Assembly: GCA_021203065.1 (NCBI GenBank)
Contig: JAJQBX010000021.1
Location: 130,514 to 194,513, forward strand
Length of the DNA: 64,000 bases
Reading direction: 5' to 3'
From: Oscillospiraceae bacterium
GTDB lineage: Bacteria; Bacillota; Clostridia; Oscillospirales; Ruminococcaceae
In this document: positions 1 through 18,695 of the stretch, one piece after another
How positions within the stretch are numbered: the stretch's first letter is position 1
Layout of the letters: each line of letters opens with the position of its first letter
The notes under the pieces: model-generated
What the model was told of the DNA's origin: nothing
The model's database searches: none
The model's input: the letters and a program-made list of their open reading frames with translations, nothing else
Made by a program: the position numbers and the translations under genes

Positions 1-281
1 TTTGTGGTGTCATCCTCGAGGTCGACAATCTGATCAGAGGTGAACGACACGCCGATATTGACAACACCCTCAAAGTACTTATAAAGTGCCGGCAAATCAT
101 AGTCCGCCGCATAATGCGTCTCGGTCTCAATATCATAAAGCTCATCAAGGGTATAGGTGAGCGATTGGTCGGTGAGCTCTGTAAGGTAATCAACCTCCGC
201 CTCCGACCCGCATGACACAAGACTCATCAGCATGCAAGCCGACAAGATAACCGCAAGAATTCTTTTTAATGAAGTTTTCAT
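1..281 (-). CDS. Putative lipoprotein, N-terminal part (CDS continues beyond the left window edge)
   Basis: ATG at 279-281 on the minus strand. Hand translation MKTSLKRILAVILSACMLMSLVSCGSEAEVDYLT... gives a signal peptide plus lipobox (LVS-C). Absent from the ORF track because the window edge truncates it. Confidence 0.5.
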   Translation of the reverse strand, partial: MKTSLKRILAVILSACMLMSLVSCGSEAEVDYLTELTDQSLTYTLDELYDIETETHYAADYDLPALYKYFEGVVNIGVSFTSDQIVDLEDDTT

Positions 282-413
282 AATATGTATTCCTTTCACA
301 GGTAAGTGATGAGTACATTATAGCACACTTCGCCGAAGAATGGAATACGGAAATCAAATTTTTTTGTGAGAAAGCCGAAATCGCAGGTTTTTAAAAAAAT
401 TTTAAAAAAGCCC

Positions 414-7704: not shown

Positions 7705-10302
7705 ATGAAAAAACGCATCTTTACAACCCTTATTAACCTATGCATGGCAATAGCCCTTGTAGCGGCACTGCTCCCTGCCCTGAGCGTGACGACCAATGCC
7801 GAAATCACCTATACATGGGAGATTCCAATCGAGATTACTGTCACAAATGGCGGCACTACTGATGCGTCTGCTATCAGTTTTGGTCTTCTGCTTTATGATC
7901 CGAGCGGCAGTGAAATAGACATAGCAGGTTTTAAAGGAGAGTATCTTGAGAATTCTCAATATGTCTATACTACCGGTCACGGAACATACAATGCAACCCT
8001 CAGATTTCAAGGCGGAGACCAACTTAAGCAGCATCTGGCTGATGGATTTATAGTGTGTCTCAATGACATCGGAGTTGATGGATGGGAGCATAACGATGTG
8101 GAATATGAGGTGGTCTCTTGCGAGTTTGATGAGGAAACCGGTGAGATGACTGAAATCTCTATAATATCTGTCAACACTGGCTATAGTGTTAATACCGCAG
8201 CATTTGAATGTGAATACACTGGCTATTACCTGCGGTTTGAGACAAATGGCGGAAGCACAATGGAATCTGTGGCTGTTGCAGACGGAACTACAGTCGACCT
8301 TTCCGGCTACACCCCGACCCGTGCTGGCTACACCTTCACCGGTTGGTATTCTGACAGTGAGCTTACTATTAAAGTCAGTAGTGTTACCTTGGATGCTACG
8401 GATGAATTCGTCTATGCCGGATGGGAGAGATATGTCACTGTCGGCGCAGTAGCCCTCGCAGACGGTCAGTACACCACCAACGGCACAGACATCAATGACG
8501 GCGAGCCCACCGGCACAAGCTATGCTTATTATTCTGATGGGGTGCTGACGCTCAGCGGTTATGATATTACAACGACCGACACATATGGCATTTACAATGA
8601 CGGTGATTTAGAGATAGTATTGGTTGGCGAGAACAGCGTCACGTCAAGTAGTGAGGGCATCTATGTAAGCGGAGATCTGACCATAAGCGGCACAGGAAGC
8701 CTGAGCGTGACAGTTGACAACGATAATGGTGATGCCTATGGAATTGTTTCTGCTGGCGGCATTATCGAAATTTCAGAATGTACGGTAAATGTAAACGCTA
8801 CGAGTAGCTACAACAGTGCTTATGCAATCTGTGCCCAAAAATACGATATTGCAATTGAAGCTGACAGCACTGTAACCGCCACGGCAACTGGTGGTGCCTA
8901 TGCTTATGGCATCTATGCGGATGATTACGTTTTAATTACCGGGAGCAAAGTAACCGTTTCTGCTGAGAGTGACGGTTTTGAGGCTTGCGCTATTTGTGCG
9001 GATGATTATAGTATTGAAATACAGGGCGGCAGTGAGGTTGAGGCGACTGTCAAAGGCGAGTTTTTGTTTGGTGAAGCACTATCAGCTCAAGATGTGATTA
9101 GTGGCGAAATTACAATATCCGGAACTGGAACCAAGTTAACGGCTACAACGACCTCGACTTCCACAGATCGTTCTGAAGCTTACGCAATCTTATCAGCGTT
9201 TGGCACTATTACAATAGAAGACGGTTGCGAGGTTATAGCCACGGTAACAACTGTTGCTGGTAGCGGTAATACTACTGACGCAATATATTCGAGCATTACA
9301 ATCAGCGACAGCTCCTTGACAGTGACAGCTGACGGTGATTATGCCACAGCAATTGGTGATACATCTGAAGACTTTTCAATTTCCAACAGCAATGTCAAGG
9401 CTTTCGCCAGCGGTGCTTCTGCAATTGCTATCGAAAGCTATGGGCGGCTTACAATAACGGGAAGTGAAGTTACAGCAACAGCCGAGGGTACTGCCTTAGG
9501 CTATGGTATTTTTATTTTGGGTAATCTTTCAATAACATCCAGTGAAGTTGAAGTCACTGGCAAGGGTGATGATGAGTATGCCATCTGTATTATTGATGGA
9601 GATAATGGCGGTCTTATAATTTCCGACAGCGAGGTCGTCGCCGACGGAGGCATCAATCTGATGACAGACGGTCCGGTAATCGCCATCCCTGCAACCGATG
9701 GTTCTATGAAGATTACTATGACTAATGATACGGACAACGTTATTTTCACTATTGATGAGCTTACGGTGATTGACACGTATGGGTATACCTATGTAAAGGT
9801 TGAGGCGCATGAGCATGCATATGATTATGACAATATCATCTGGGATTGGACGGATTATGAGAATGTTACGGCTACGGTTACCTGTACTGATTCCGGCTTT
9901 GAGCATTCCAAGACCGTTACGGCTACGGTGACTTCGGTCGCTTCTGGCAGTACGGTGACTTATACGGCTACGGCAGAGTTTGACGGCAAAACCTACACCG
10001 CTACTGCCACTGTCGCCTCCACCACCTCCTCAACCCAGTCAACCGCCTCCGCCAATTATTCCGCCGTCCGTGAAGCGATAGCCAAGGCGAATGCCCTGAA
10101 TCCTGACGATTATGAGGACTTCTCAGCAGTCACGAGGGCAATCACCAATGTCAACTGGTCACTCGCCTTGGCAAACCAGAGCGCAGTAAACTCGATGGCA
10201 GCTGCCATCAACGAGGCGATCGCCAATCTCGTCCCCGTATCTTCGGTGGAAGTAGTAGTTGATGAGCCGGTCGAGGGAACAGATTTGGAAGTTGAGGAGT
10301 AA
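7705..10302 (+). CDS. Large secreted surface protein: Listeria-Bacteroides (Flg_new-type) repeat, long beta-helix-like T/S/G repeats, conserved C-terminal module
   Basis: Signal peptide present. YYLRFETNGGSTMESVAVADGTTVDLSGYTPTRAGYTFTGWYSD...YAGW matches the Flg_new-type repeat. The C-terminal ~150 aa are shared with 56158..57807, including a FIVAR-like helical segment YSAVREAIAKANALNPDDYEDFS. Confidence 0.8.
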   Translation: MKKRIFTTLINLCMAIALVAALLPALSVTTNAEITYTWEIPIEITVTNGGTTDASAISFGLLLYDPSGSEIDIAGFKGEYLENSQYVYTTGHGTYNATLRFQGGDQLKQHLADGFIVCLNDIGVDGWEHNDVEYEVVSCEFDEETGEMTEISIISVNTGYSVNTAAFECEYTGYYLRFETNGGSTMESVAVADGTTVDLSGYTPTRAGYTFTGWYSDSELTIKVSSVTLDATDEFVYAGWERYVTVGAVALADGQYTTNGTDINDGEPTGTSYAYYSDGVLTLSGYDITTTDTYGIYNDGDLEIVLVGENSVTSSSEGIYVSGDLTISGTGSLSVTVDNDNGDAYGIVSAGGIIEISECTVNVNATSSYNSAYAICAQKYDIAIEADSTVTATATGGAYAYGIYADDYVLITGSKVTVSAESDGFEACAICADDYSIEIQGGSEVEATVKGEFLFGEALSAQDVISGEITISGTGTKLTATTTSTSTDRSEAYAILSAFGTITIEDGCEVIATVTTVAGSGNTTDAIYSSITISDSSLTVTADGDYATAIGDTSEDFSISNSNVKAFASGASAIAIESYGRLTITGSEVTATAEGTALGYGIFILGNLSITSSEVEVTGKGDDEYAICIIDGDNGGLIISDSEVVADGGINLMTDGPVIAIPATDGSMKITMTNDTDNVIFTIDELTVIDTYGYTYVKVEAHEHAYDYDNIIWDWTDYENVTATVTCTDSGFEHSKTVTATVTSVASGSTVTYTATAEFDGKTYTATATVASTTSSTQSTASANYSAVREAIAKANALNPDDYEDFSAVTRAITNVNWSLALANQSAVNSMAAAINEAIANLVPVSSVEVVVDEPVEGTDLEVEE

Positions 10303-10320
10303 TAAAATCTCAAAAACCTC

Positions 10321-10349
10321 TTGACAAACGTCTCAAGGTCGTATATAAT
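10321..10349 (+). promoter_or_regulatory. Sigma-A promoter of the aromatic amino acid operon
   Basis: TTGACA at 10321-10326, 17-nt spacer, TATAAT at 10344-10349. Confidence 0.7.
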
Positions 10350-10404
10350 CTATAAAGATGAACGAGAATTCGTTCAAATGAAGCATTTTACGGAGAGTTG
10401 CACG

Positions 10405-10476
10405 ATGTCAAAACAAACTGTTGGCTCAGCCAATGTTTTCTGCTTTGCATATTATTATTACTTTACCATGCGTTGA
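10405..10476 (+). CDS. Leader peptide (23 aa) rich in Tyr/Phe: MSKQTVGSANVFCFAYYYYFTMR
   Basis: GGAGAG at 10392-10397 lies 7 nt before the ATG at 10405. Codons 12-20 are F-C-F-A-Y-Y-Y-Y-F. Stop at 10474-10476. It lies between the promoter and the terminator hairpin upstream of aro/tyrA/pheA. Confidence 0.55.
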   Translation: MSKQTVGSANVFCFAYYYYFTMR

Positions 10477-10521
10477 CCCGGCGGTAAAGTGATTTGTGTT
10501 GCAACAAAAGGTTTTGTTTAT

Positions 10522-10553
10522 CAGCTGCACAGGTTACTTGTGCAGCTTTTTTT
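10522..10553 (+). terminator. Attenuator terminator in the aromatic operon leader
   Basis: CAGCTGCACA-ggttact-TGTGCAGC followed by TTTTTTT, 70 nt upstream of the aroF start. Confidence 0.7.
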
Positions 10554-10625
10554 GAAGCTACTTAGGGTAGCAAGTTGCACGTGACCCGGGCAGGGCTCTT
10601 TCCGAAAAAAGAAAGGACAATTATT

Positions 10626-11630
10626 ATGGTAGTAGCATTGAAGAAAAATGTATCAGAGGAAAAGCGGGCACAGCTCATCGACTGGCTCGGCGGAATGGGA
10701 ATCAAGGTCCATGTTTCCGAGGGCGAGTTCACAACAGTCTTAGGTCTCATCGGCGACACCACCAAGGTCGATAAGGACCTCATCGAGAGCCTTGATATTG
10801 TCGACTCTGTCACCAGAGTTTCCGAGGCTTTCAAGTGCTGTAACCGCAAATTCCATCCCGAAGACACTATTATAGATGTAAAGGGCGTCAAGATTGGCGG
10901 CGGCAACTTCTGCATGATAGCGGGTCCCTGCTCTGTTGAGACTGAGGAGCAGATTGTCGCAGTCGCCAAGGCTGTCAAGGCATCGGGAGCAAATATGCTA
11001 AGAGGCGGCGCATTCAAGCCGAGAACCTCTCCCTATGATTTCCAAGGTCTTCATGCCCGTGGCTTGGAGCTTTTAAAGATTGCCCGTGAAGAAACCGGTC
11101 TTCCGATTGTAACTGAAATCATGAGCACAAACGACCTGCCTTTGTTCGAGGACGTCGACGTTTTGCAGGTCGGTGCAAGAAATATGCAGAATTTCGAGAT
11201 GCTCAAGGAGCTCGGCAAGACCGACAAGCCGATACTTCTCAAGCGTGGTCTTGCGAATACCCTTAAGGAGCTCCTGATGAGTGCCGAATACATCATGGCT
11301 TCCGGCAACGAGAAGGTTATGCTCTGTGAAAGAGGAATAAGAACCTACAGCGACTACACCAGAAATACAATGGACATCTCCGCAATTCCGATGCTCCATG
11401 AGCTTTCCCATCTCCCCGTAATCGCCGACCCGAGTCACGCAACTGGCATGGCAAGACTCGTTCCTCCGATGGCGATGGCGGCAACAGCTGCAGGCGCAGA
11501 CGGACTCATCATCGAGGTTCATAACGACCCGATGCACGCACTCTGCGACGGCGCACAGTCTTTAAGACCTGAGGAATTCGACGCACTTTCAAAGAAAATC
11601 ACTGCTGTCAGGGAGGCATCACTCGGATGA
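10626..11630 (+). CDS. aroF: 3-deoxy-7-phosphoheptulonate (DAHP) synthase, type I-beta with N-terminal regulatory-like domain
   Basis: GPCSVE, KPRTSPYDFQG and ADPSHA motifs. I prefer the ATG at 10626 (GAAAGGA SD) over the track start at 10575 (TTG). Confidence 0.85.
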   Translation: MVVALKKNVSEEKRAQLIDWLGGMGIKVHVSEGEFTTVLGLIGDTTKVDKDLIESLDIVDSVTRVSEAFKCCNRKFHPEDTIIDVKGVKIGGGNFCMIAGPCSVETEEQIVAVAKAVKASGANMLRGGAFKPRTSPYDFQGLHARGLELLKIAREETGLPIVTEIMSTNDLPLFEDVDVLQVGARNMQNFEMLKELGKTDKPILLKRGLANTLKELLMSAEYIMASGNEKVMLCERGIRTYSDYTRNTMDISAIPMLHELSHLPVIADPSHATGMARLVPPMAMAATAAGADGLIIEVHNDPMHALCDGAQSLRPEEFDALSKKITAVREASLG

Positions 11631-12460
11631 TTGCCGGAATCGTGGGCTTGGGGCTCATAGGAGCATCCTTTGCCAAGGCTTATAAAGTGGCAGGACACAC
11701 AGTCTTGGGCTATAACAGAAGTAAATCCGCACTCGATTATCTTAAGCTTGCGGGAGATGTCGACGATGAACTGACCATGGAGCGTCTTCGTGAATGCGAC
11801 ATAGTTATAATCTCCGTGTATCCTGACGCCTGCATAGAATATCTCGAGAAAGCCGCGCCCCATTTCGGCTCAAAGCCGGTTGTAATTGACTGCTGCGGCA
11901 CAAAGCGTAAGGTGACCGAAGTGGGCTTTAAGCTTGCGGATGAATACGGCTTCACCTTTGTCGGCGGTCACCCGATGGCAGGAACGCATAATTCCGGCTA
12001 TAAGTACGCAAAAGCCGACATGTATAAGGGCGCACCGATGGTACTGGTCCCGAACGGCGAGCCGAGCATCAAGCTGCTAAGTCACACAAAGGAGCTCTTA
12101 GCCCCCGCTGGCTTCGGAAGCATCTCCGTCACCACTGCCGAAAAGCATGACGAGATGATCGCTTTCACCTCCCAGCTCGCCCACGTCGTCTCGAACGCCT
12201 ACATCAAGAGCCCAACGGCAAGGGAACACAAGGGCTTCTCAGCAGGAAGCTATAAGGACATGACAAGAGTCGCATGGCTCAACCCGGAAATGTGGGCGGA
12301 GCTCTTCCTTGAAAACGGCGACAATCTTATCAAGGAGCTCGACATTCTGGTTGAAAACCTCGATCAGTATCGCACAGCAATCCGTGAAAATGATAAGGAA
12401 GAGCTTATAAGATTATTAGACGACGGCAGAAAGATAAAAGCGGAGGTTGACGGAAGATGA
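11627..12460 (+). CDS. tyrA: Prephenate dehydrogenase
   Basis: N-terminal GLGLIGAS Rossmann motif, TyrA-like length and sequence. Overlaps the aroF stop. Confidence 0.85.
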   Translation: MIAGIVGLGLIGASFAKAYKVAGHTVLGYNRSKSALDYLKLAGDVDDELTMERLRECDIVIISVYPDACIEYLEKAAPHFGSKPVVIDCCGTKRKVTEVGFKLADEYGFTFVGGHPMAGTHNSGYKYAKADMYKGAPMVLVPNGEPSIKLLSHTKELLAPAGFGSISVTTAEKHDEMIAFTSQLAHVVSNAYIKSPTAREHKGFSAGSYKDMTRVAWLNPEMWAELFLENGDNLIKELDILVENLDQYRTAIRENDKEELIRLLDDGRKIKAEVDGR

Positions 12461-13497
12461 GCGTAGTAAATGTCACAGCGTCCCGAAATTACGACGTAAC
12501 CGTTTCTGACGGAATAATAGACAAATGCGGAAGCTTCTGCAAGCCTCTCGTAAAAGGCAAAAACGCAGTCATAGTCTCCGATGACAACGTCTTTTCCATC
12601 TACGGAAAGAGAGTCACGAAGAGCCTCGAGAGCGAGGGCTTCAAGGTCAGCGAATTCGTCGTTCCCCATGGCGAGCGTTCAAAGAGCATGAGCTGCTATA
12701 TAAATCTCCTCGAATTCCTCTTCGAAAGCGGCGTCACAAGAAGTGATCTTCTTGTAGCCCTTGGTGGAGGAGTGGTAGGGGACCTCTGTGGCTTTGCGGC
12801 TGCGACCTATCAGCGTGGAATTCAGTTCGTTCAGATCCCGACGACGCTTCTTGCGATGGTCGATTCCTCAGTCGGAGGAAAAACTGCGGTAAACCTTGAG
12901 AACGGCAAGAATCAGGTCGGCTCATTCTATCAGCCGTCAGCCGTCATCTGCGACCCGAAAACCCTTTCTACACTCCCCGAGGAGGAATACCTCTGCGGAT
13001 GCGCAGAAGTCATAAAGTATGCGGTTTTATTCAGCGAGGAATTCTTCACTCAGCTTGAGGAGACCCCCGCAAAAAAGCAGCTCGAAAACGTAATCACCAC
13101 CTGCGTCACAATGAAGCGTGACATCGTGAAAGCTGACGAATTCGACACCGGCGAGAGGATGCTTCTCAATCTCGGTCACACCGTCGGTCATGCAGTCGAG
13201 GGACTAAGCGGCTTTGAGACGCTCCACGGTCAGGCAGTCGCCATCGGTCTTGCGACCATCTCACGCTCTGCCGTGAAGTATGGTTACCTGAGTGAAGAAA
13301 ACTGCGAAAGAATAATCGGTCTCTTGGAAAAGTATGGTCTCCCGACCGAAACCGAATTCACTGCAGATGAGATGTACACCCTCGCCGTTTCCGACAAGAA
13401 AGCCTCGAGCGACACTATCACTATAATAGTTCCCCGGAAAATCGGACACTGCGAGCTCTTAAAGCTCCCGAAAACAGATTTGAAAGATTGGCTTTGA
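12457..13497 (+). CDS. aroB: 3-dehydroquinate synthase
   Basis: GGGVVGDLCGFAAATYQRGIQFVQIPTTLLAMVDSSVGGKTAVN is the AroB signature region. Confidence 0.9.
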   Translation: MSVVNVTASRNYDVTVSDGIIDKCGSFCKPLVKGKNAVIVSDDNVFSIYGKRVTKSLESEGFKVSEFVVPHGERSKSMSCYINLLEFLFESGVTRSDLLVALGGGVVGDLCGFAAATYQRGIQFVQIPTTLLAMVDSSVGGKTAVNLENGKNQVGSFYQPSAVICDPKTLSTLPEEEYLCGCAEVIKYAVLFSEEFFTQLEETPAKKQLENVITTCVTMKRDIVKADEFDTGERMLLNLGHTVGHAVEGLSGFETLHGQAVAIGLATISRSAVKYGYLSEENCERIIGLLEKYGLPTETEFTADEMYTLAVSDKKASSDTITIIVPRKIGHCELLKLPKTDLKDWL

Positions 13498-13498
13498 T

Positions 13499-14746
13499 AT
13501 GACAAAAGAACTTATCCCCGGTGAGAGAACTGGCACGGTTTTAATTCCTGCTTCAAAATCTCAGGCGCACAGAGCCGTGATTTTAGCGGCTCTCGGTTTG
13601 CACGATGTGGGAATTACCTGTAAAGGCATTTCCAATGACATCATAGCCACTGCCGCCTGCATGAATTCAGCGGGAGCGAACATAGAGATTGCAGACAACA
13701 GGATACATGTTTCGCCTGTAGGCAGTCAGCGTTCAAGCACTTTCGAGTGCGGCGAAAGCGGCTCGACTCTTCGTTTCCTGCTCCCGGTCTTCGGAGCGTT
13801 GGGCGTTTCGGGCGAATTTCTCCCCAAAGGTCGCCTGATTGACCGTCCGCTCTATCCTCTTGACAAGGTTCTGAAGACCCACGGTATGAGTATTCAGAAG
13901 ACCGAATCGACAATCCGGTTCTCCGGCAAGCTAATCCCCGGCGAATACGAAATCCCCGGCGATGTTTCTTCGCAGTATATAACAGGTCTACTGATGGCTC
14001 TGCCTCTTTTAGATGGCGACAGCAGTCTTAAGGTTACCGGAGTTCTTCAGTCAAAAGGCTATGTCCGGATGACCGAGGAGCTTCTTAGAAAATCCGGCAT
14101 ACAGTATACCCACACAGGCGATACATATTTTATAAAAGGTTCTCAGAAGCCTGACATGGGTGATAGCTTTACAGTAGAGGGCGACTACTCCAATGCGGCT
14201 TTTTATCTCTGCATGGGTGCGCTTTCCTGCGATGGTATCACAGTCAACGGCTTGAACCCTGATTCATCCCAAGGCGATAAAGCTGTAATCGCAATTCTTA
14301 AGGAAATGGGTGCAGATATAGCCGTCTCCGGCAATTCAGTAACGGTCAGAAAGGGAAGTCTTAAGGGCGTCACAATAGATGCCTCCCAGATTCCGGATCT
14401 GATCCCGACCTTAAGCGTTGTTGCATCCGTCTGCGACGGCGAAACCCACATCATCAACGCAGAACGCCTCAGAATCAAAGAATCTGACAGAATCGCATCA
14501 ACCTGTGCGCTCATAAATAACTTAGGCGGCAATGCAAAAGAGCTCCCCGACGGCATAATAATTACTGGCGTCAGAAATCTGACCGGCGGCAGTGTGGACA
14601 GCTGCAATGACCACAGAATAGCAATGAGTGCGGCTGTGGCGGCATGCGCCTCAATCGGTAAAGTAACAGTACTTGACAGCATGTGCGTAAGAAAGTCCTA
14701 TCCCGGTTTCTGGGAGGACTTCTCTGAGCTTGATATAAAATCATAA
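13499..14746 (+). CDS. aroA: 3-phosphoshikimate 1-carboxyvinyltransferase (EPSP synthase)
   Basis: IPASKSQAHRAVILAAL N-terminus, two-domain EPSPS length (415 aa), DHRIAMS near the C-terminus. Confidence 0.9.
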   Translation: MTKELIPGERTGTVLIPASKSQAHRAVILAALGLHDVGITCKGISNDIIATAACMNSAGANIEIADNRIHVSPVGSQRSSTFECGESGSTLRFLLPVFGALGVSGEFLPKGRLIDRPLYPLDKVLKTHGMSIQKTESTIRFSGKLIPGEYEIPGDVSSQYITGLLMALPLLDGDSSLKVTGVLQSKGYVRMTEELLRKSGIQYTHTGDTYFIKGSQKPDMGDSFTVEGDYSNAAFYLCMGALSCDGITVNGLNPDSSQGDKAVIAILKEMGADIAVSGNSVTVRKGSLKGVTIDASQIPDLIPTLSVVASVCDGETHIINAERLRIKESDRIASTCALINNLGGNAKELPDGIIITGVRNLTGGSVDSCNDHRIAMSAAVAACASIGKVTVLDSMCVRKSYPGFWEDFSELDIKS

Positions 14747-14761
14747 AAAGGACGGTGCAGA

Positions 14762-15829
14762 ATGGCAAGCAGTATCGGCAGTAACATTAAGCTCACCATA
14801 TTCGGTCAGTCTCACTCAGCGGCAATAGGGATGACGCTTGAGGGACTACCGGCGGGAGTTAAAATAGACTTTGACAAGCTTGAAGCCTTTACATCCCGCA
14901 GAGCACCCGGCAAAAATGCATATTCAACCGCCCGCAAGGAAGCCGACAAGCCGGAATTCGTTTCCGGTCTCCGTGACGGCGTCACCTGCGGCGCACCACT
15001 AACGGCTATAATCCGTAACACCGACACCCGTTCAAACGACTATAGTGAACTCAAAATCCTCCCTCGCCCCGGTCATGCCGACTATACGGCTTCCGTCAAA
15101 TACGGCGGCTATCAGGACTATGCCGGAGGAGGGCACTTTTCCGGAAGACTCACAGCACCCCTTTGCGTAGCTGGCGGAATAGTCCTGCAGATTCTTGAGA
15201 GCCTTAGCATAACGGTAATCTCCCGTATCTCCTCAATCGGCAACGTCTCTGACGACGGTGAACTCACGGAATCGACATCAGGGAAGCCTTTCCCGACAGT
15301 CAGCGATGCGAGTGCCGTCAAAATGCAGGAGTGCATAGCCTCCGCCAAGAGCGAGGGCGACTCGGTCGGCGGAATTGTTGAGTGTAAAGTACTTGGGCTT
15401 CCCACCGGCTTGGGCGATCCGATGTTTGACGGGATGGAGAATAGGATTGCAAACATCGTTTTCGGAATCCCTGCCGTCAAGGGAATAGAATTCGGAATTG
15501 GCTTCGAAGCTTCAAAGCTCCGTGGCAGTGAGAATAACGACCCATTCGAAATCAAAGATGGCAGGATAGTAACCGCCACCAACAACTGTGGAGGAATCTT
15601 GGGCGGCATCACAACCGGAATGCCTCTTACATTCAGGGTTGCATTCAAGCCGACGCCGTCAATCTCCCAAAAACAGCACAGCGTAAGGCTTGACACCTTT
15701 ACAGAGGGCGAGCTTATCGTAAAGGGCAGACACGACCCCTGCATAGTTCCCCGTGCCGTTCCCTGCGTTGAAGCCGCCGCCGCAATTGCCGTTTATGACG
15801 CTTACTTAGAGTATAAGAAATACATATAA
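14762..15829 (+). CDS. aroC: Chorismate synthase
   Basis: FGQSHS, RPGHADY and GRHDPC motifs. Confidence 0.9.
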   Translation: MASSIGSNIKLTIFGQSHSAAIGMTLEGLPAGVKIDFDKLEAFTSRRAPGKNAYSTARKEADKPEFVSGLRDGVTCGAPLTAIIRNTDTRSNDYSELKILPRPGHADYTASVKYGGYQDYAGGGHFSGRLTAPLCVAGGIVLQILESLSITVISRISSIGNVSDDGELTESTSGKPFPTVSDASAVKMQECIASAKSEGDSVGGIVECKVLGLPTGLGDPMFDGMENRIANIVFGIPAVKGIEFGIGFEASKLRGSENNDPFEIKDGRIVTATNNCGGILGGITTGMPLTFRVAFKPTPSISQKQHSVRLDTFTEGELIVKGRHDPCIVPRAVPCVEAAAAIAVYDAYLEYKKYI

Positions 15830-15848
15830 CCTGAAAGGACATGACATC

Positions 15849-17024
15849 ATGGATACTGAGAAGATCACCCCAAACACCTCAGACGGAAGAAAGGTCTATC
15901 GTGACAAGATAGACGAAATAGACAACGAAATAGTTAAGCTTTTCGGCGAGAGAATGGAAACAGCCGCAGGCTTGGCGTCATTCAAGAAGGAGCACAGCCT
16001 CCCTGTTCTCGACATGCGCCGTGAGCGTGAAAAGATTCAGGACGTCGTCGACAAGACCCCCGACGAGCTGAAAGAGTACACCGAGCTCCTCTATTCGTTC
16101 ATCTTGGAGCTCAGCCGTGGCTATCAGAACCGCCTCATCGGTAATGGTAGCGAATTAAGCTCAAAGATTTCCTCGGCAATTGAGAATACCCCGAAGCTTT
16201 TCCCGGAGCGTGCAGTAGTTGCATGTCAGGGCGTCGAGGGCGCATACTCCTCGATAGCCGCAGGAAAGCTCTTCAAGTCGCCGAATGTCATGTATTTCTC
16301 TTCATTTGATGCTGTCTTCACCGCAATCGAAAAGGGCTTCTGCAAGTATGGCGTAATCCCTCTTGAGAACAGCACCGCAGGCTCAGTAAATTCCGTTTAT
16401 GACCTCATGACAAAGCACAGCTTCAATATCGTCAGAAGCATCCGCCTCAAGGTTGAGCACAATCTTCTTGCAAAATCCGGTACGAAGCTTGAGGATATAA
16501 CCGAAATCTACTCCCACCAGCAGGCTATCACCCAGTGCGCTGAGTTCCTCTCAACCCTCAAGGGCGTCAAGGTCATCCCCTGCGAGAACACCGCCGTCGC
16601 CGCAAAGATGGTCGCCGAATCTGACCGCTCAGACATTGCAACTCTGTCATCAAGTGAATGTCAGAAGCTTTACGGTCTTGAGTGCCTCAAGCCGGCAGTT
16701 CAGGACAACGACAACAACTACACCCGTTTCATTTGCATCTCGAAAGACCTCGAAATCTATCCCGGCGCAGACAGAACGAGCCTTATGGTGGTCCTCGAGG
16801 ACAAGCCCGGTTCGCTCTATAAGCTCCTTTCACGTCTCTATGCGTTCGGCATCAATCTAAGTAAACTCGAGAGCCGCCCGATTCCGAATAAAGATTTTGA
16901 ATTCATGTTCTACTTCGACCTCGATACCTCCGTCTACTCTCCGCAGTTTTTGCAGCTGATGAGCGAATTAGGTGATATTTCGAGTGAATACAGCTACTTG
17001 GGCAGTTACCGGGAGGTAATGTAA
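15849..17024 (+). CDS. pheA: Bifunctional chorismate mutase / prephenate dehydratase
   Basis: N-terminal chorismate mutase helices (IDEIDNEIVKLFGERM), prephenate dehydratase core, and C-terminal ACT domain with an ESRP motif (LSKLESRPIP). Confidence 0.85.
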   Translation: MDTEKITPNTSDGRKVYRDKIDEIDNEIVKLFGERMETAAGLASFKKEHSLPVLDMRREREKIQDVVDKTPDELKEYTELLYSFILELSRGYQNRLIGNGSELSSKISSAIENTPKLFPERAVVACQGVEGAYSSIAAGKLFKSPNVMYFSSFDAVFTAIEKGFCKYGVIPLENSTAGSVNSVYDLMTKHSFNIVRSIRLKVEHNLLAKSGTKLEDITEIYSHQQAITQCAEFLSTLKGVKVIPCENTAVAAKMVAESDRSDIATLSSSECQKLYGLECLKPAVQDNDNNYTRFICISKDLEIYPGADRTSLMVVLEDKPGSLYKLLSRLYAFGINLSKLESRPIPNKDFEFMFYFDLDTSVYSPQFLQLMSELGDISSEYSYLGSYREVM

Positions 17025-17025
17025 A

Positions 17026-18258
17026 GTGTCGCTGAAATGCGGACTCTTGGGCGAGACTCTCGGGCATAGCTACTCGCCCCGTATTCATGCTTATTTGGGA
17101 GACTACGACTATTGTCTCTATGAAATTTCCCGGGAAAAGGTCGAAGATTTCATCCTTCACGGCGACTGGGATGGCTTGAATGTCACCATCCCTTATAAAA
17201 AAGTAGCCGCCTCCCTCTGCGACGAGCTTTCTGACATCGCCCGGGATCTCGGAAGCGTCAACACAATAGTCAGACGTAACGGCAAGCTATATGGTCACAA
17301 CACCGACTACTACGGCTTTAAGAGCATGGTTCTCGAAACCGGCGTCGACATTTCCGGCAAAAAAGCCCTCGTCTTGGGCACAGGCGGAACCGGTGTCACT
17401 ATAGTCAAGGTCTTGACCGAAATGGGTGCAGAAGTAGTCCCCATCAGCCGCACAGGCGAAAATAACTATGACAATATCGAAAAGCACTCGGATGCGGTTC
17501 TCGTTGTAAATGCGACCCCTGTCGGAATGTACCCGAAAAATGGGGCTTCGCCACTCGATTTAAGAAGAATCCCGTCCTGCGAGTGCGTTTTGGATGTTAT
17601 TTACAACCCGATGAGAACGGCTTTGATTTTGCAGGCTGAAAGCTTGGGACTCAAGTACAAGAGCGGGCTTCACATGCTCATAGCTCAGGCGAAATACAGC
17701 TCTGAGCTGTTCCAGAACAAGAAAATTAGTGACGATTCGGTTACATTTATCGAAAATTCATTGACAAAGGAGCTCGAAAACATTATACTTATCGGTATGC
17801 CCGGGAGCGGCAAGTCGGTAGTTGCCGAGGCTCTTGGAAGAAGACTTCACAAGCCGGTCATCGAAACCGATGCCGAAATCGTAAAATCTGCTGGTATGAC
17901 CATTCCGGAGATATTCGAAAAGTCCGGCGAAGAGGAGTTCAGGCGGCTTGAAACAGCCCAGATGGAGCTTTCAGGCAAGCTTTCGGAAAGAATTATCTCC
18001 ACCGGCGGTGGGGCTGTCACAAGGGAGGAAAACTACAATCTCCTCCACCAGAACGGAATAATCGTCTGGCTCGAGCGGGATACTTCGAAGCTCCCGACCG
18101 ACGGCAGACCCATCTCCCAGAAGTCGGATTTATCTGAGCTCTACCGCAGGCGCAAGCCCATGTATGAGCGTTTCGCCGACCTGAGAGTTTCCAACAACGG
18201 CACAGTTTCAGAAACTGTCGGAAAAATCATTGCAGGAATCGAGGGCATAACGAAATGA
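17026..18258 (+). CDS. aroE/aroK: Fused shikimate dehydrogenase - shikimate kinase
   Basis: The N-terminal half is AroE-like (GLLGETLGHSYSPRIH, NVTIPYK, GTGGTG). The C-terminal ~165 aa have the shikimate kinase P-loop GMPGSGKS. GTG start. Confidence 0.85.
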   Translation: MSLKCGLLGETLGHSYSPRIHAYLGDYDYCLYEISREKVEDFILHGDWDGLNVTIPYKKVAASLCDELSDIARDLGSVNTIVRRNGKLYGHNTDYYGFKSMVLETGVDISGKKALVLGTGGTGVTIVKVLTEMGAEVVPISRTGENNYDNIEKHSDAVLVVNATPVGMYPKNGASPLDLRRIPSCECVLDVIYNPMRTALILQAESLGLKYKSGLHMLIAQAKYSSELFQNKKISDDSVTFIENSLTKELENIILIGMPGSGKSVVAEALGRRLHKPVIETDAEIVKSAGMTIPEIFEKSGEEEFRRLETAQMELSGKLSERIISTGGGAVTREENYNLLHQNGIIVWLERDTSKLPTDGRPISQKSDLSELYRRRKPMYERFADLRVSNNGTVSETVGKIIAGIEGITK

Positions 18259-18695
18259 AGCTACTTGTCATAAACGGTCCGAATATCAATATGCTCGGAA
18301 TCAGGGAGCCGGGAATCTACGGCAAAGAAACCTATTCTTCGCTTGTCAGCATGATAAGTGACTACTGCGAAAGTAATGGGATAGACGTAGAATTCTTCCA
18401 GTCGAACCACGAGGGCGCAATTGTCGACAAGATTCAGGAAGCCTACGGAGTTTTCGATGGAATTGTCATCAATCCTGCGGCTTATACCCACACGAGCGTT
18501 GCGATTCTTGACGCACTCAAGGCAGTTTCAATTCCGGCAGTGGAGGTTCACATTTCGGCAGTAAACGAGCGTGAAGACTTCCGGCAGATTTCCTACGCCG
18601 GCAAAGCGTGCGTAAAGACCTATATGGGACTCGGCTTTGACGGCTATATCGAGGCAGTAAAATTCCTCGAAAACTATCTCACACAGAAGAAATAA
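18255..18695 (+). CDS. aroQ: Type II 3-dehydroquinate dehydratase
   Basis: INGPNINMLGIREPGIYG, SNHEG and INPAAYTHTS motifs. Confidence 0.9.
   Translation: MKLLVINGPNINMLGIREPGIYGKETYSSLVSMISDYCESNGIDVEFFQSNHEGAIVDKIQEAYGVFDGIVINPAAYTHTSVAILDALKAVSIPAVEVHISAVNEREDFRQISYAGKACVKTYMGLGFDGYIEAVKFLENYLTQKK

Follow-up and report, generated by a model that had tools for sequence, protein, structure and literature searches.

The 64-kb stretch of an Oscillospiraceae genome analysed here (the window) carries an eight-gene operon for the shikimate, tyrosine (Tyr) and phenylalanine (Phe) pathways, from aroF to aroQ, and in front of it a promoter, a small open reading frame (ORF) rich in Tyr and Phe codons and an intrinsic terminator. 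The question raised by this locus is whether, and by which signal, this leader would decide if transcription continues into aroF. Based on comparisons at the sequence level, we propose that the element is very probably a ribosome-mediated leader-peptide transcription attenuator, which would set the aroF-aroQ operon by the supply of charged tRNA-Tyr and tRNA-Phe. The anatomy of the leader, its conservation, its reading frame, the covariation of its three helices and the way in which its codon content follows the downstream gene are directly supported by the observations reported below.

Results

The original prediction, made from the window alone, had described a consensus promoter, a hairpin at the 5' end of the transcript, a Shine-Dalgarno (SD) sequence followed by a 23-codon ORF, a second small hairpin and a terminator, and all of these were read again in the present analysis. 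All of these window features lie on the plus strand. The promoter is of the sigma-70 type and consists of TTGACA (10321-10326), a spacer of 17 nucleotides (nt) and TATAAT (10344-10349), with agreement to the consensus at 12/12 positions, and no second promoter-like match besides 10321-10349 was found in 9800-11200. The leader ORF MSKQTVGSANVFCFAYYYYFTMR (10405-10476) begins with the ATG at 10405 and ends with the TGA at 10474-10476, thus comprising 23 codons plus the stop, and the SD sequence GGAGAG (10392-10397) is located 7-12 nt before its start. The putative regulatory codons are gathered at 10438-10464, with three Phe codons (10438-10440, 10444-10446 and 10462-10464) and a run of four consecutive Tyr codons (10450-10461), and the number of Trp codons in this ORF is zero. 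Two longer in-frame ORFs, starting from TTG 10321 and ATG 10379, were considered as the leader and rejected, as they are without an SD sequence and are not conserved, the ATG being missing at the matching position in the related loci L001 and L004.

The window leader folds better than its dinucleotide shuffles (z = -2.68), and its RNA can be divided into segments with alternative partners. Segment 1 (UUGCAUAU....AUUACUUUACC, 10445-10467) lies over the Ala, Tyr, Phe and Thr codons and pairs with segment 2 (GGUAAAGUGAUUUGUGUUGCAA, 10483-10504), which finds its partner either in segment 1 or in segment 3 in the folds of truncated transcripts. The resulting segment 1:2 structure (10440-10504, -17.7 kcal/mol), which is the anti-antiterminator, contains the last Tyr codons and the Phe and Thr codons. 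The antiterminator hairpin, or 2:3 helix (10487-10539), is formed by a 5' arm at 10487-10502 and a 3' arm at 10524-10539, the latter being the 5' arm plus loop of the terminator, and has 15 pairs, 13 contiguous and then two G-C past a one-nt bulge, with -19.2 kcal/mol. Here the original prediction held in part: the UGUGUUGC/GCUGCACA pairing that it had put forward as the antiterminator is real, but these 8 nt are only the top of the 15-pair helix. The small hairpin AACAAAA-gg-UUUUGUU (AACAAAAggUUUUGUU, 10503-10518) is located in the antiterminator loop, and the region that it occupies differs in sequence and length among relatives. The intrinsic terminator, or 3:4 helix (10523-10553, -15.4 kcal/mol), has a stem of 11 pairs, six of them G-C (10523-10533 with 10537-10547), a loop at 10534-10536 and a run of seven T at 10547-10553, the first of which closes the stem. 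A folding check for mutually exclusive structures had been suggested together with the prediction, and the 1:2, 2:3 and 3:4 helices in the window do share nucleotides, the antiterminator being mutually exclusive with the terminator and competing with the 1:2 structure for segment 2.

Relatives of the locus were collected through a scan with the AroF protein, keeping one genome per species, which gave 80 loci with an AroF identity of 74-96%. These are mostly metagenome-assembled genomes labelled Oscillospiraceae, Ruminococcaceae, Acutalibacteraceae or simply Clostridia, namely Oscillospirales-type Clostridia, and include the cultured Dysosmobacter segnis and Hominicoprocola fusiformis. From each locus the 400 nt 5' of aroF were taken, and the 66 distinct leaders, that of the window included, were aligned structure-blind with MAFFT (alignment A1), from which a covariance model (R1) was built. 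R1 occurs as one copy per locus, always directly 5' of aroF, in 70 of the 80 species-level genomes, including L044, L069, L079 and, in part, L002, which are outside the seed of R1 and serve as an independent check. In the window it gives a single match (10435-10556, 88.5 bits, expectation value E = 1.4e-13) and no second copy in the 64 kb, a match that is expected by construction because the 66 seed sequences include that of the window itself. The remaining ten aroF loci (L013, L015, L018, L026, L048, L049, L051, L052, L058 and L059) are without the attenuator as modelled by R1, and no Rfam family, the T-box included, matched at them; in one of these, L058, three copies of TAAAGTGC(A/T) are present 5' of aroF.

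The comparison of orthologous leaders revealed conservation of the small ORF as well as of its run of aromatic codons. In most loci (about 70 species) the peptide of a small ORF terminates in a motif resembling A-Y-Y-[YF]-Y-F-T, such as MKSIFVFAYYYYFTMDS and MLNIFDFGYAYYFYFTAV, and the N-termini of the leaders are unrelated among relatives while this C-terminal motif is kept. The Tyr/Phe frame has an upstream ATG without an intervening stop in all 66 leaders and an SD-like motif in 63 of them, as against two other frames that are open in 16 and 4 of the 66, with 1 and 0 SD motifs, respectively. A promoter motif TTGACN-16..18-TANNNT is located at most 130 nt 5' of the leader ATG in 54/66 relatives versus 0 in shuffled controls. 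Tyr makes up 18.8% and Phe 15.2% of the leader residues, together 34%, compared with 3.4% and 3.3% (about 7% together) in the eight operon proteins. The synonymous codons TAT/TAC and TTT/TTC are all in use, and exchanges between Tyr and Phe are frequent. Trp codons adjoin the Tyr/Phe run in five aroF leaders (L016, L031, L047, L038 and L062), as in KIWYWYYF and YYWWFSLK; behind these five leaders no trp genes were found in the 3 kb covered, and the usual aroF-tyrA-aroB/aroA order is present.

The helices are conserved among the relatives as well, and their stems covary. Within the family, conservation is highest in segment 2, with an invariant UG of UUUG in A1, and the family-type segments 2 and 3 are like GUAAGGNUAAUUUGUG and GCACAGGUUA, respectively. 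On A1, 91.9% of the cells of the antiterminator are paired versus 32-58% when the partner is slid by 1-3 columns, and 9 of its 15 pairs are changed on both sides, a number that none of 500 shuffles reach; the column pair 72:157, for instance, is GC in 19 leaders, AU in 7, CG in 5 and UA in 3. The inner 1:2 hairpin (CUUUACN / N'GUAAGG) plus the terminator have 89% of their cells paired and 13 of 19 pairs doubly changed, which again is equalled in 0/500 shuffles; the inner 1:2 helix by itself has double changes in 5/8 pairs and the terminator compensatory changes in 8/11. One of the covarying positions is within the coding region, since the conserved Thr codon covaries, at its third base, with the segment 2 nucleotide opposite it (pair 46:65). 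RNAalifold on A1 predicts the terminator independently and did not recover the alternative helices from that alignment; as it gave the terminator only, these helices were specified and counted explicitly.

To relate these helices to the position of the ribosome, transcripts of the 66 leaders ending just after the terminator loop were folded with the 28 nt around the ribosomal A site blocked. With the ribosome on an aromatic codon, the median predicted probability of the antiterminator is 0.97, and the probability exceeds 0.5 in 61/66 leaders; with the ribosome at the stop codon the median is 0.00 (above 0.5 in 8/66), and with no ribosome it is 0.17 (above 0.5 in 28/66). The position of the stop codon relative to segment 2 is non-random among the 66 leaders: it is the UAG directly before UAAGG in 19, the UAA of GUAAGG in 14 and a UGA inside UUUGUGAUGC in another 14. 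Because this placement sets the terminating ribosome on the antiterminator arm, the antiterminator is predicted to be off with a ribosome at the stop.

The same structural scaffold was found in front of other genes. A metagenome scan for the core of segments 2 and 3 returned at least 120 stretches. Among the matches listed, at least 70 are in the aroF context, with 32 distinct leaders that carry on average 3.5 Tyr and 3.0 Phe codons, and at least 22 metagenome contigs (including L089, L105, L108, L132, L133 and L146; 3196-3315 in L133) have a paralogous copy of the element before a monocistronic pheA, which encodes CM_2, PDT and ACT domains. The leader of the pheA type, (M)MYVSAMFAF[LI]FTFTGLQ, contains four or five Phe and no more than one Tyr, and these copies match R1 over its full length with 75-83 bits. 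The pheA leaders are thus Phe-only and the aroF leaders Tyr/Phe, and therefore the codon content tracks the downstream gene. In L133 the gene after pheA is on the opposite strand.

Single copies of the scaffold were also noticed in three further contexts. The gene behind the attenuator of L122 (minus strand, 335-1120; Tyr/Phe leader at about 1165-1270) is not aroF but encodes a lipoprotein of the PF04392 ABC_sub_bind type, possibly a component of an aromatic amino-acid transporter. In L093 a Tyr/Phe leader with the attenuator is located before a MerR-family regulator (gene 7-345, minus strand), with no aroF behind. In L165 (1249-1400; rumen metagenome contig Ga0310786_10307588) the scaffold of segment 2, segment 3 and terminator is matched by R1 with 59.9 bits, and the leader MMRQSSFAIIIGIIISFIIRKYDRVDL has eight Ile codons (ATC, ATT and ATA) in place of the Tyr run of its relatives; the downstream gene encodes an XRE-type helix-turn-helix (HTH) protein, at which the contig ends. 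This copy is a possible Ile-sensing variant, of which it is the single example.

Discussion

The reading of the locus as a Tyr/Phe leader-peptide attenuator, first offered by the original prediction, is supported by the conserved ORF, by the covarying stems and by a codon content that follows the gene behind it. Based on these findings, we propose the following course of events, in which the Tyr/Phe response, the timing and possible pauses of the polymerase are what we infer. Transcription would start about 7 nt past the -10 box, and the 23-codon leader would be translated as the RNA polymerase proceeds. When Tyr or Phe is scarce, the ribosome would stall on the F-x-F-A-YYYY-F codons and cover segment 1, and segment 2, left free, could then pair with the emerging segment 3 as the antiterminator, which would consume the 5' arm and loop of the terminator and let the polymerase read into aroF. 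When both amino acids are plentiful, the ribosome would reach the stop codon. In most relatives, where the stop is at or inside segment 2, the terminating ribosome would itself mask the antiterminator arm; in the clade of the window the off state would be reached via release of the ribosome and a re-formed segment 1:2 structure. By either route the terminator would form and transcription would end before the operon.

Several points weigh against this proposal. When the complete terminator is included in equilibrium folding, it is the favoured structure in most relatives wherever the ribosome is placed, and because of this the switch would have to be kinetic, that is, co-transcriptional. Moreover, transcription and translation are reportedly uncoupled in Bacillus subtilis. 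The clade of the window (the window, L001 and L003-L005) departs from the stop placement given above, in that the stop precedes the invariant G by 22-26 nt, a position more 5' than that of most relatives; here a ribosome at the stop leaves the antiterminator arm unmasked, with a predicted antiterminator probability of 1.00, and the ribosome-free truncated transcript is predicted to form the antiterminator at only about 50-70%. With the stop 6 nt 5' of segment 2, termination in this clade must depend on the ribosome leaving the RNA and on the 1:2 structure forming anew, in the textbook trp style, and in these folds the off state is less well explained than in the relatives, which makes it the weakest point of the proposal for the window itself. 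The covariation of the Thr third base with segment 2 indicates that the conservation of the F-T residues is partly an RNA constraint, so that what looks like a conserved peptide reflects, in part, conserved RNA. In addition, the pheA-type leaders form one narrow clade with five distinct sequences, and they count, for that reason, as roughly one evolutionary event.

Other explanations of the same features have to be weighed. A translation-coupled attenuator might report general translation capacity, as affected by slow-down, the stringent response or antibiotics, rather than the supply of Tyr and Phe, given that the architecture needs only a ribosome that fails to reach the stop; the Trp codons in five leaders and the Ile-rich copy before a regulator gene could be read in this way. 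However, the Tyr and Phe codons are enriched about five-fold and lie at just those positions at which stalling of the ribosome frees segment 2, and the Phe-only codons before pheA would be hard to explain without amino-acid specificity, so that we regard such a general sensor as unlikely. Protein-mediated attenuation of aromatic genes exists in Bacillus, where it is exerted by TRAP, and this precedent lends support to the idea that a TRAP- or PyrR-like protein binds the UAU/UAC/UUU repeats or segment 2, with the ORF being incidental; the repeated UAY triplets are, indeed, arrayed regularly. The leader has, however, no GAG/UAG array, since three GAG and no UAG occur in 10356-10560 versus the 9-11 (G/U)AG spaced by 2-3 nt for TRAP, and the frame, start codon and SD sequence are kept in 63-66 of 66 leaders while the N-terminus drifts. 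Furthermore, the exchanges between Tyr and Phe and the synonymous changes alter the RNA and keep the amino-acid class, and a UAY-binding protein would leave the non-random placement of the stop relative to segment 2 unexplained, all of which renders a protein-mediated mechanism quite improbable.

A further alternative is that the ORF encodes a functional small hydrophobic peptide, or the leader a short regulatory RNA, that stands before aroF by coincidence, or that the hairpin is the terminator of the upstream gene. The terminated leader transcript of about 200 nt would be present in cells, where a function in trans is conceivable. Yet the element is associated with aroF, pheA or an aromatic-type ATP-binding cassette (ABC) binding protein and with no single upstream gene, conservation of the peptide is absent outside the aromatic run and the RNA-paired codons, and a consensus promoter is located between the end of the upstream ORF (10302) and the leader, which together make this explanation very improbable. 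Finally, Firmicutes usually control their amino-acid genes with T-boxes (PMC2494555), and a T-box or another ligand- or tRNA-sensing riboswitch could overlap a short ORF by chance. Against this, no family of Rfam 15 matched in the whole window at gathering scores and no relevant one at 10250-10700 with E up to 10 or at 13 loci, the T-box covariance model gave no match in the window, and the conserved RNA spans only about 125 nt of simple alternative hairpins without a specifier loop or T-box sequence; a riboswitch at this position is thus extremely improbable.

With the leader-peptide attenuator as the preferred reading, the element can be compared with known systems. The Leu/Phe leader of Lactococcus (RF01743) is a Firmicute leader-peptide candidate with Phe codons, and differs in that its covariance model has no match in the window, even with E up to 10. 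Likewise, the Phe_leader, Trp_leader, His_leader, Leu_leader and Thr_leader models of Rfam found no match in the window or, with E up to 10, at 10250-10700. The element resembles the pheL-pheA and trpL leaders of Escherichia coli in that cognate codons are clustered in a leader ORF, the helices alternate as 1:2, 2:3 and 3:4 and the first structural gene is preceded by an intrinsic terminator, but it shares no similarity in sequence or covariance model with them (Rfam Phe_leader and Trp_leader) and belongs to another phylum; besides, it mixes Tyr and Phe codons, would control a combined shikimate/Tyr/Phe operon and has its stop at or inside segment 2 in most relatives.

The closest precedents are the F/Y-rich uORF-12 and uORF-13, proposed as 'aromatic amino acid attenuators' upstream of aroF in Firmicutes (Stav et al. 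2019, BMC Microbiol 19:66, PMC6429828, supplementary text and Table S1). According to this supplementary account, uORF-13, discovered in Clostridium novyi (NC_008593.1:2308872-2309418), has 336 examples in Firmicutes including 'Clostridiales', 57% of them metagenomic; about half are upstream of aroF, followed by tyrA in the same operon, with shikimate genes and amino-acid transporters among the further contexts, and a short ORF with an F-Y-F consensus, followed by a terminator, was read by its authors as a trp-like attenuator (PMC6429828). As judged from that description, the anatomy and the contexts found here (aroF-tyrA, pheA and an ABC binding protein) fit uORF-13, whereas the supplementary text gives a P1 stem and a terminator, and in it no antiterminator, alternative-helix covariation, stop placement or codon swapping is set out. 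Neither uORF-12 nor uORF-13 is in Rfam 15.

Other leaders share parts of this design. The uORFC-13-1 element, with 24 examples in Acholeplasma only, is similarly located upstream of aroF and has an upstream ORF with Phe codons, a promoter, a ribosome-binding site and an adjacent terminator; by its description, it differs in its U-run, which encodes one Phe or more, and in another substructure (Brewer et al. 2021, PMC8632094). His leaders of the Bacillus cereus group, Peptostreptococcaceae and Erysipelotrichales (PMC2965389, PMC9413887) demonstrate that the leader-peptide mechanism is present in Firmicutes, with another amino acid sensed. Outside the Proteobacteria, the leader aroR of Corynebacterium glutamicum likewise carries an F-Y-F motif and stands in front of a gene for aromatic biosynthesis, in yet another phylum and, as stated in the supplement of Stav et al. 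(PMC6429828), with the rest of the peptide and the RNA structure being distinct. Leader-peptide attenuators of Firmicutes are therefore no longer rare, and the original prediction, which had held that only a few are described, overstated the novelty of the locus, as uORF-12/uORF-13 and uORFC-13-1 had been put forward earlier as candidates and the Firmicutes His leaders were known.

A description of this exact Oscillospirales element was not found in the literature, and it may be a new attenuator of a known kind or possibly the same as uORF-12/uORF-13. We tentatively consider, as the less likely case, that it is distinct from uORF-13 and represents a modular Oscillospirales scaffold (segment 2 GUAAGGNUAAUUUGUGAUGC, segment 3 GCGGCACAGGUUA and terminator) in which the sensing codons were exchanged in evolution, with Tyr/Phe before aroF operons and the ABC binding protein, Phe before pheA and Ile before an HTH regulator in one copy. 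If this were true, the stop inside the antiterminator arm would imply a tight functional coupling of transcription and translation in a Firmicute lineage, unlike in B. subtilis.

A closely similar candidate has been in print since 2019; what is added here is detail and breadth and not a new concept, namely an explicit three-helix model with covariation, the stop-placement rule together with the departure of the window's clade from it, the extension to about 70 species and the codon-swapped variants of one scaffold. The element likely controls Tyr and Phe synthesis in a large group of gut and rumen Clostridia, cultured and uncultured, and for annotation it provides a rule, in that a small unannotated ORF with an RNA switch may be looked for 5' of aroF, pheA and the putative aromatic amino-acid transporter. 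As leader-peptide attenuation needs ribosomes that keep pace with the RNA polymerase, a deeply conserved case in Firmicutes, whose stop codon lies within the antiterminator arm, could give direct access to the question of if and in what way coupling operates outside the Proteobacteria, and the Tyr/Phe, Phe-only and Ile variants would constitute a natural codon-swap series for the study of specificity.

Additional features of the locus

The downstream genes were named by NCBIfam, each exceeding the curated cut-off of one model or more, or else matching with E from 2e-44 to 1e-145, and the names agree with the eight-gene shikimate/Tyr/Phe operon that had been read behind the leader. The operon (10626-18695) consists of aroF (10626-11630), tyrA (11627-12460), aroB (12457-13497), aroA (13499-14746), aroC (14762-15829), pheA (15849-17024), which encodes chorismate mutase-prephenate dehydratase, an aroE-aroK fusion (17026-18258) and aroQ (18255-18695), after which an unrelated DegV gene follows. 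The order aroF-tyrA-aroB-aroA is common to the relatives. The gene 5' of the leader (7705-10302, plus strand) encodes a protein of 865 amino acids whose sole NCBIfam match is the Listeria-Bacteroides repeat TIGR02543, probably a surface protein unrelated to the attenuator.

Directly after the 1:2 hairpin there is an invariant block GG-N-UAAUUUGU|G (window 10483-10499; columns 70-81 of A1), in which a G-G stands about 10-11 nt before a U-G. This geometry presumably resembles that of a hairpin-stabilised or consensus elemental pause site, and a pause at this block could, as pure inference, synchronise the polymerase with the ribosome.

The 5'-terminal stem-loop of the leader transcript (10359-10376), UGAACGA-gaau-UCGUUCA, is present in both the minimum free energy (MFE) and the centroid folds, and comprises the GAACGA-gaat-TCGTTC core at 10360-10375 and a closing U-A pair. 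Its conservation is limited to the closest clade, in which L005 shows a compensatory change (GAACGG/CCGUUU), and it may act as a 5' stabiliser of the leader transcript. Lastly, the SD and start region AGUUGCAC (10392-10404) is closely similar to the 5' arm of the terminator, AGCUGCAC (10523-10530), and is able to base-pair with the terminator's 3' arm in the full-length MFE fold, a feature that is kept only in the clade of the window.

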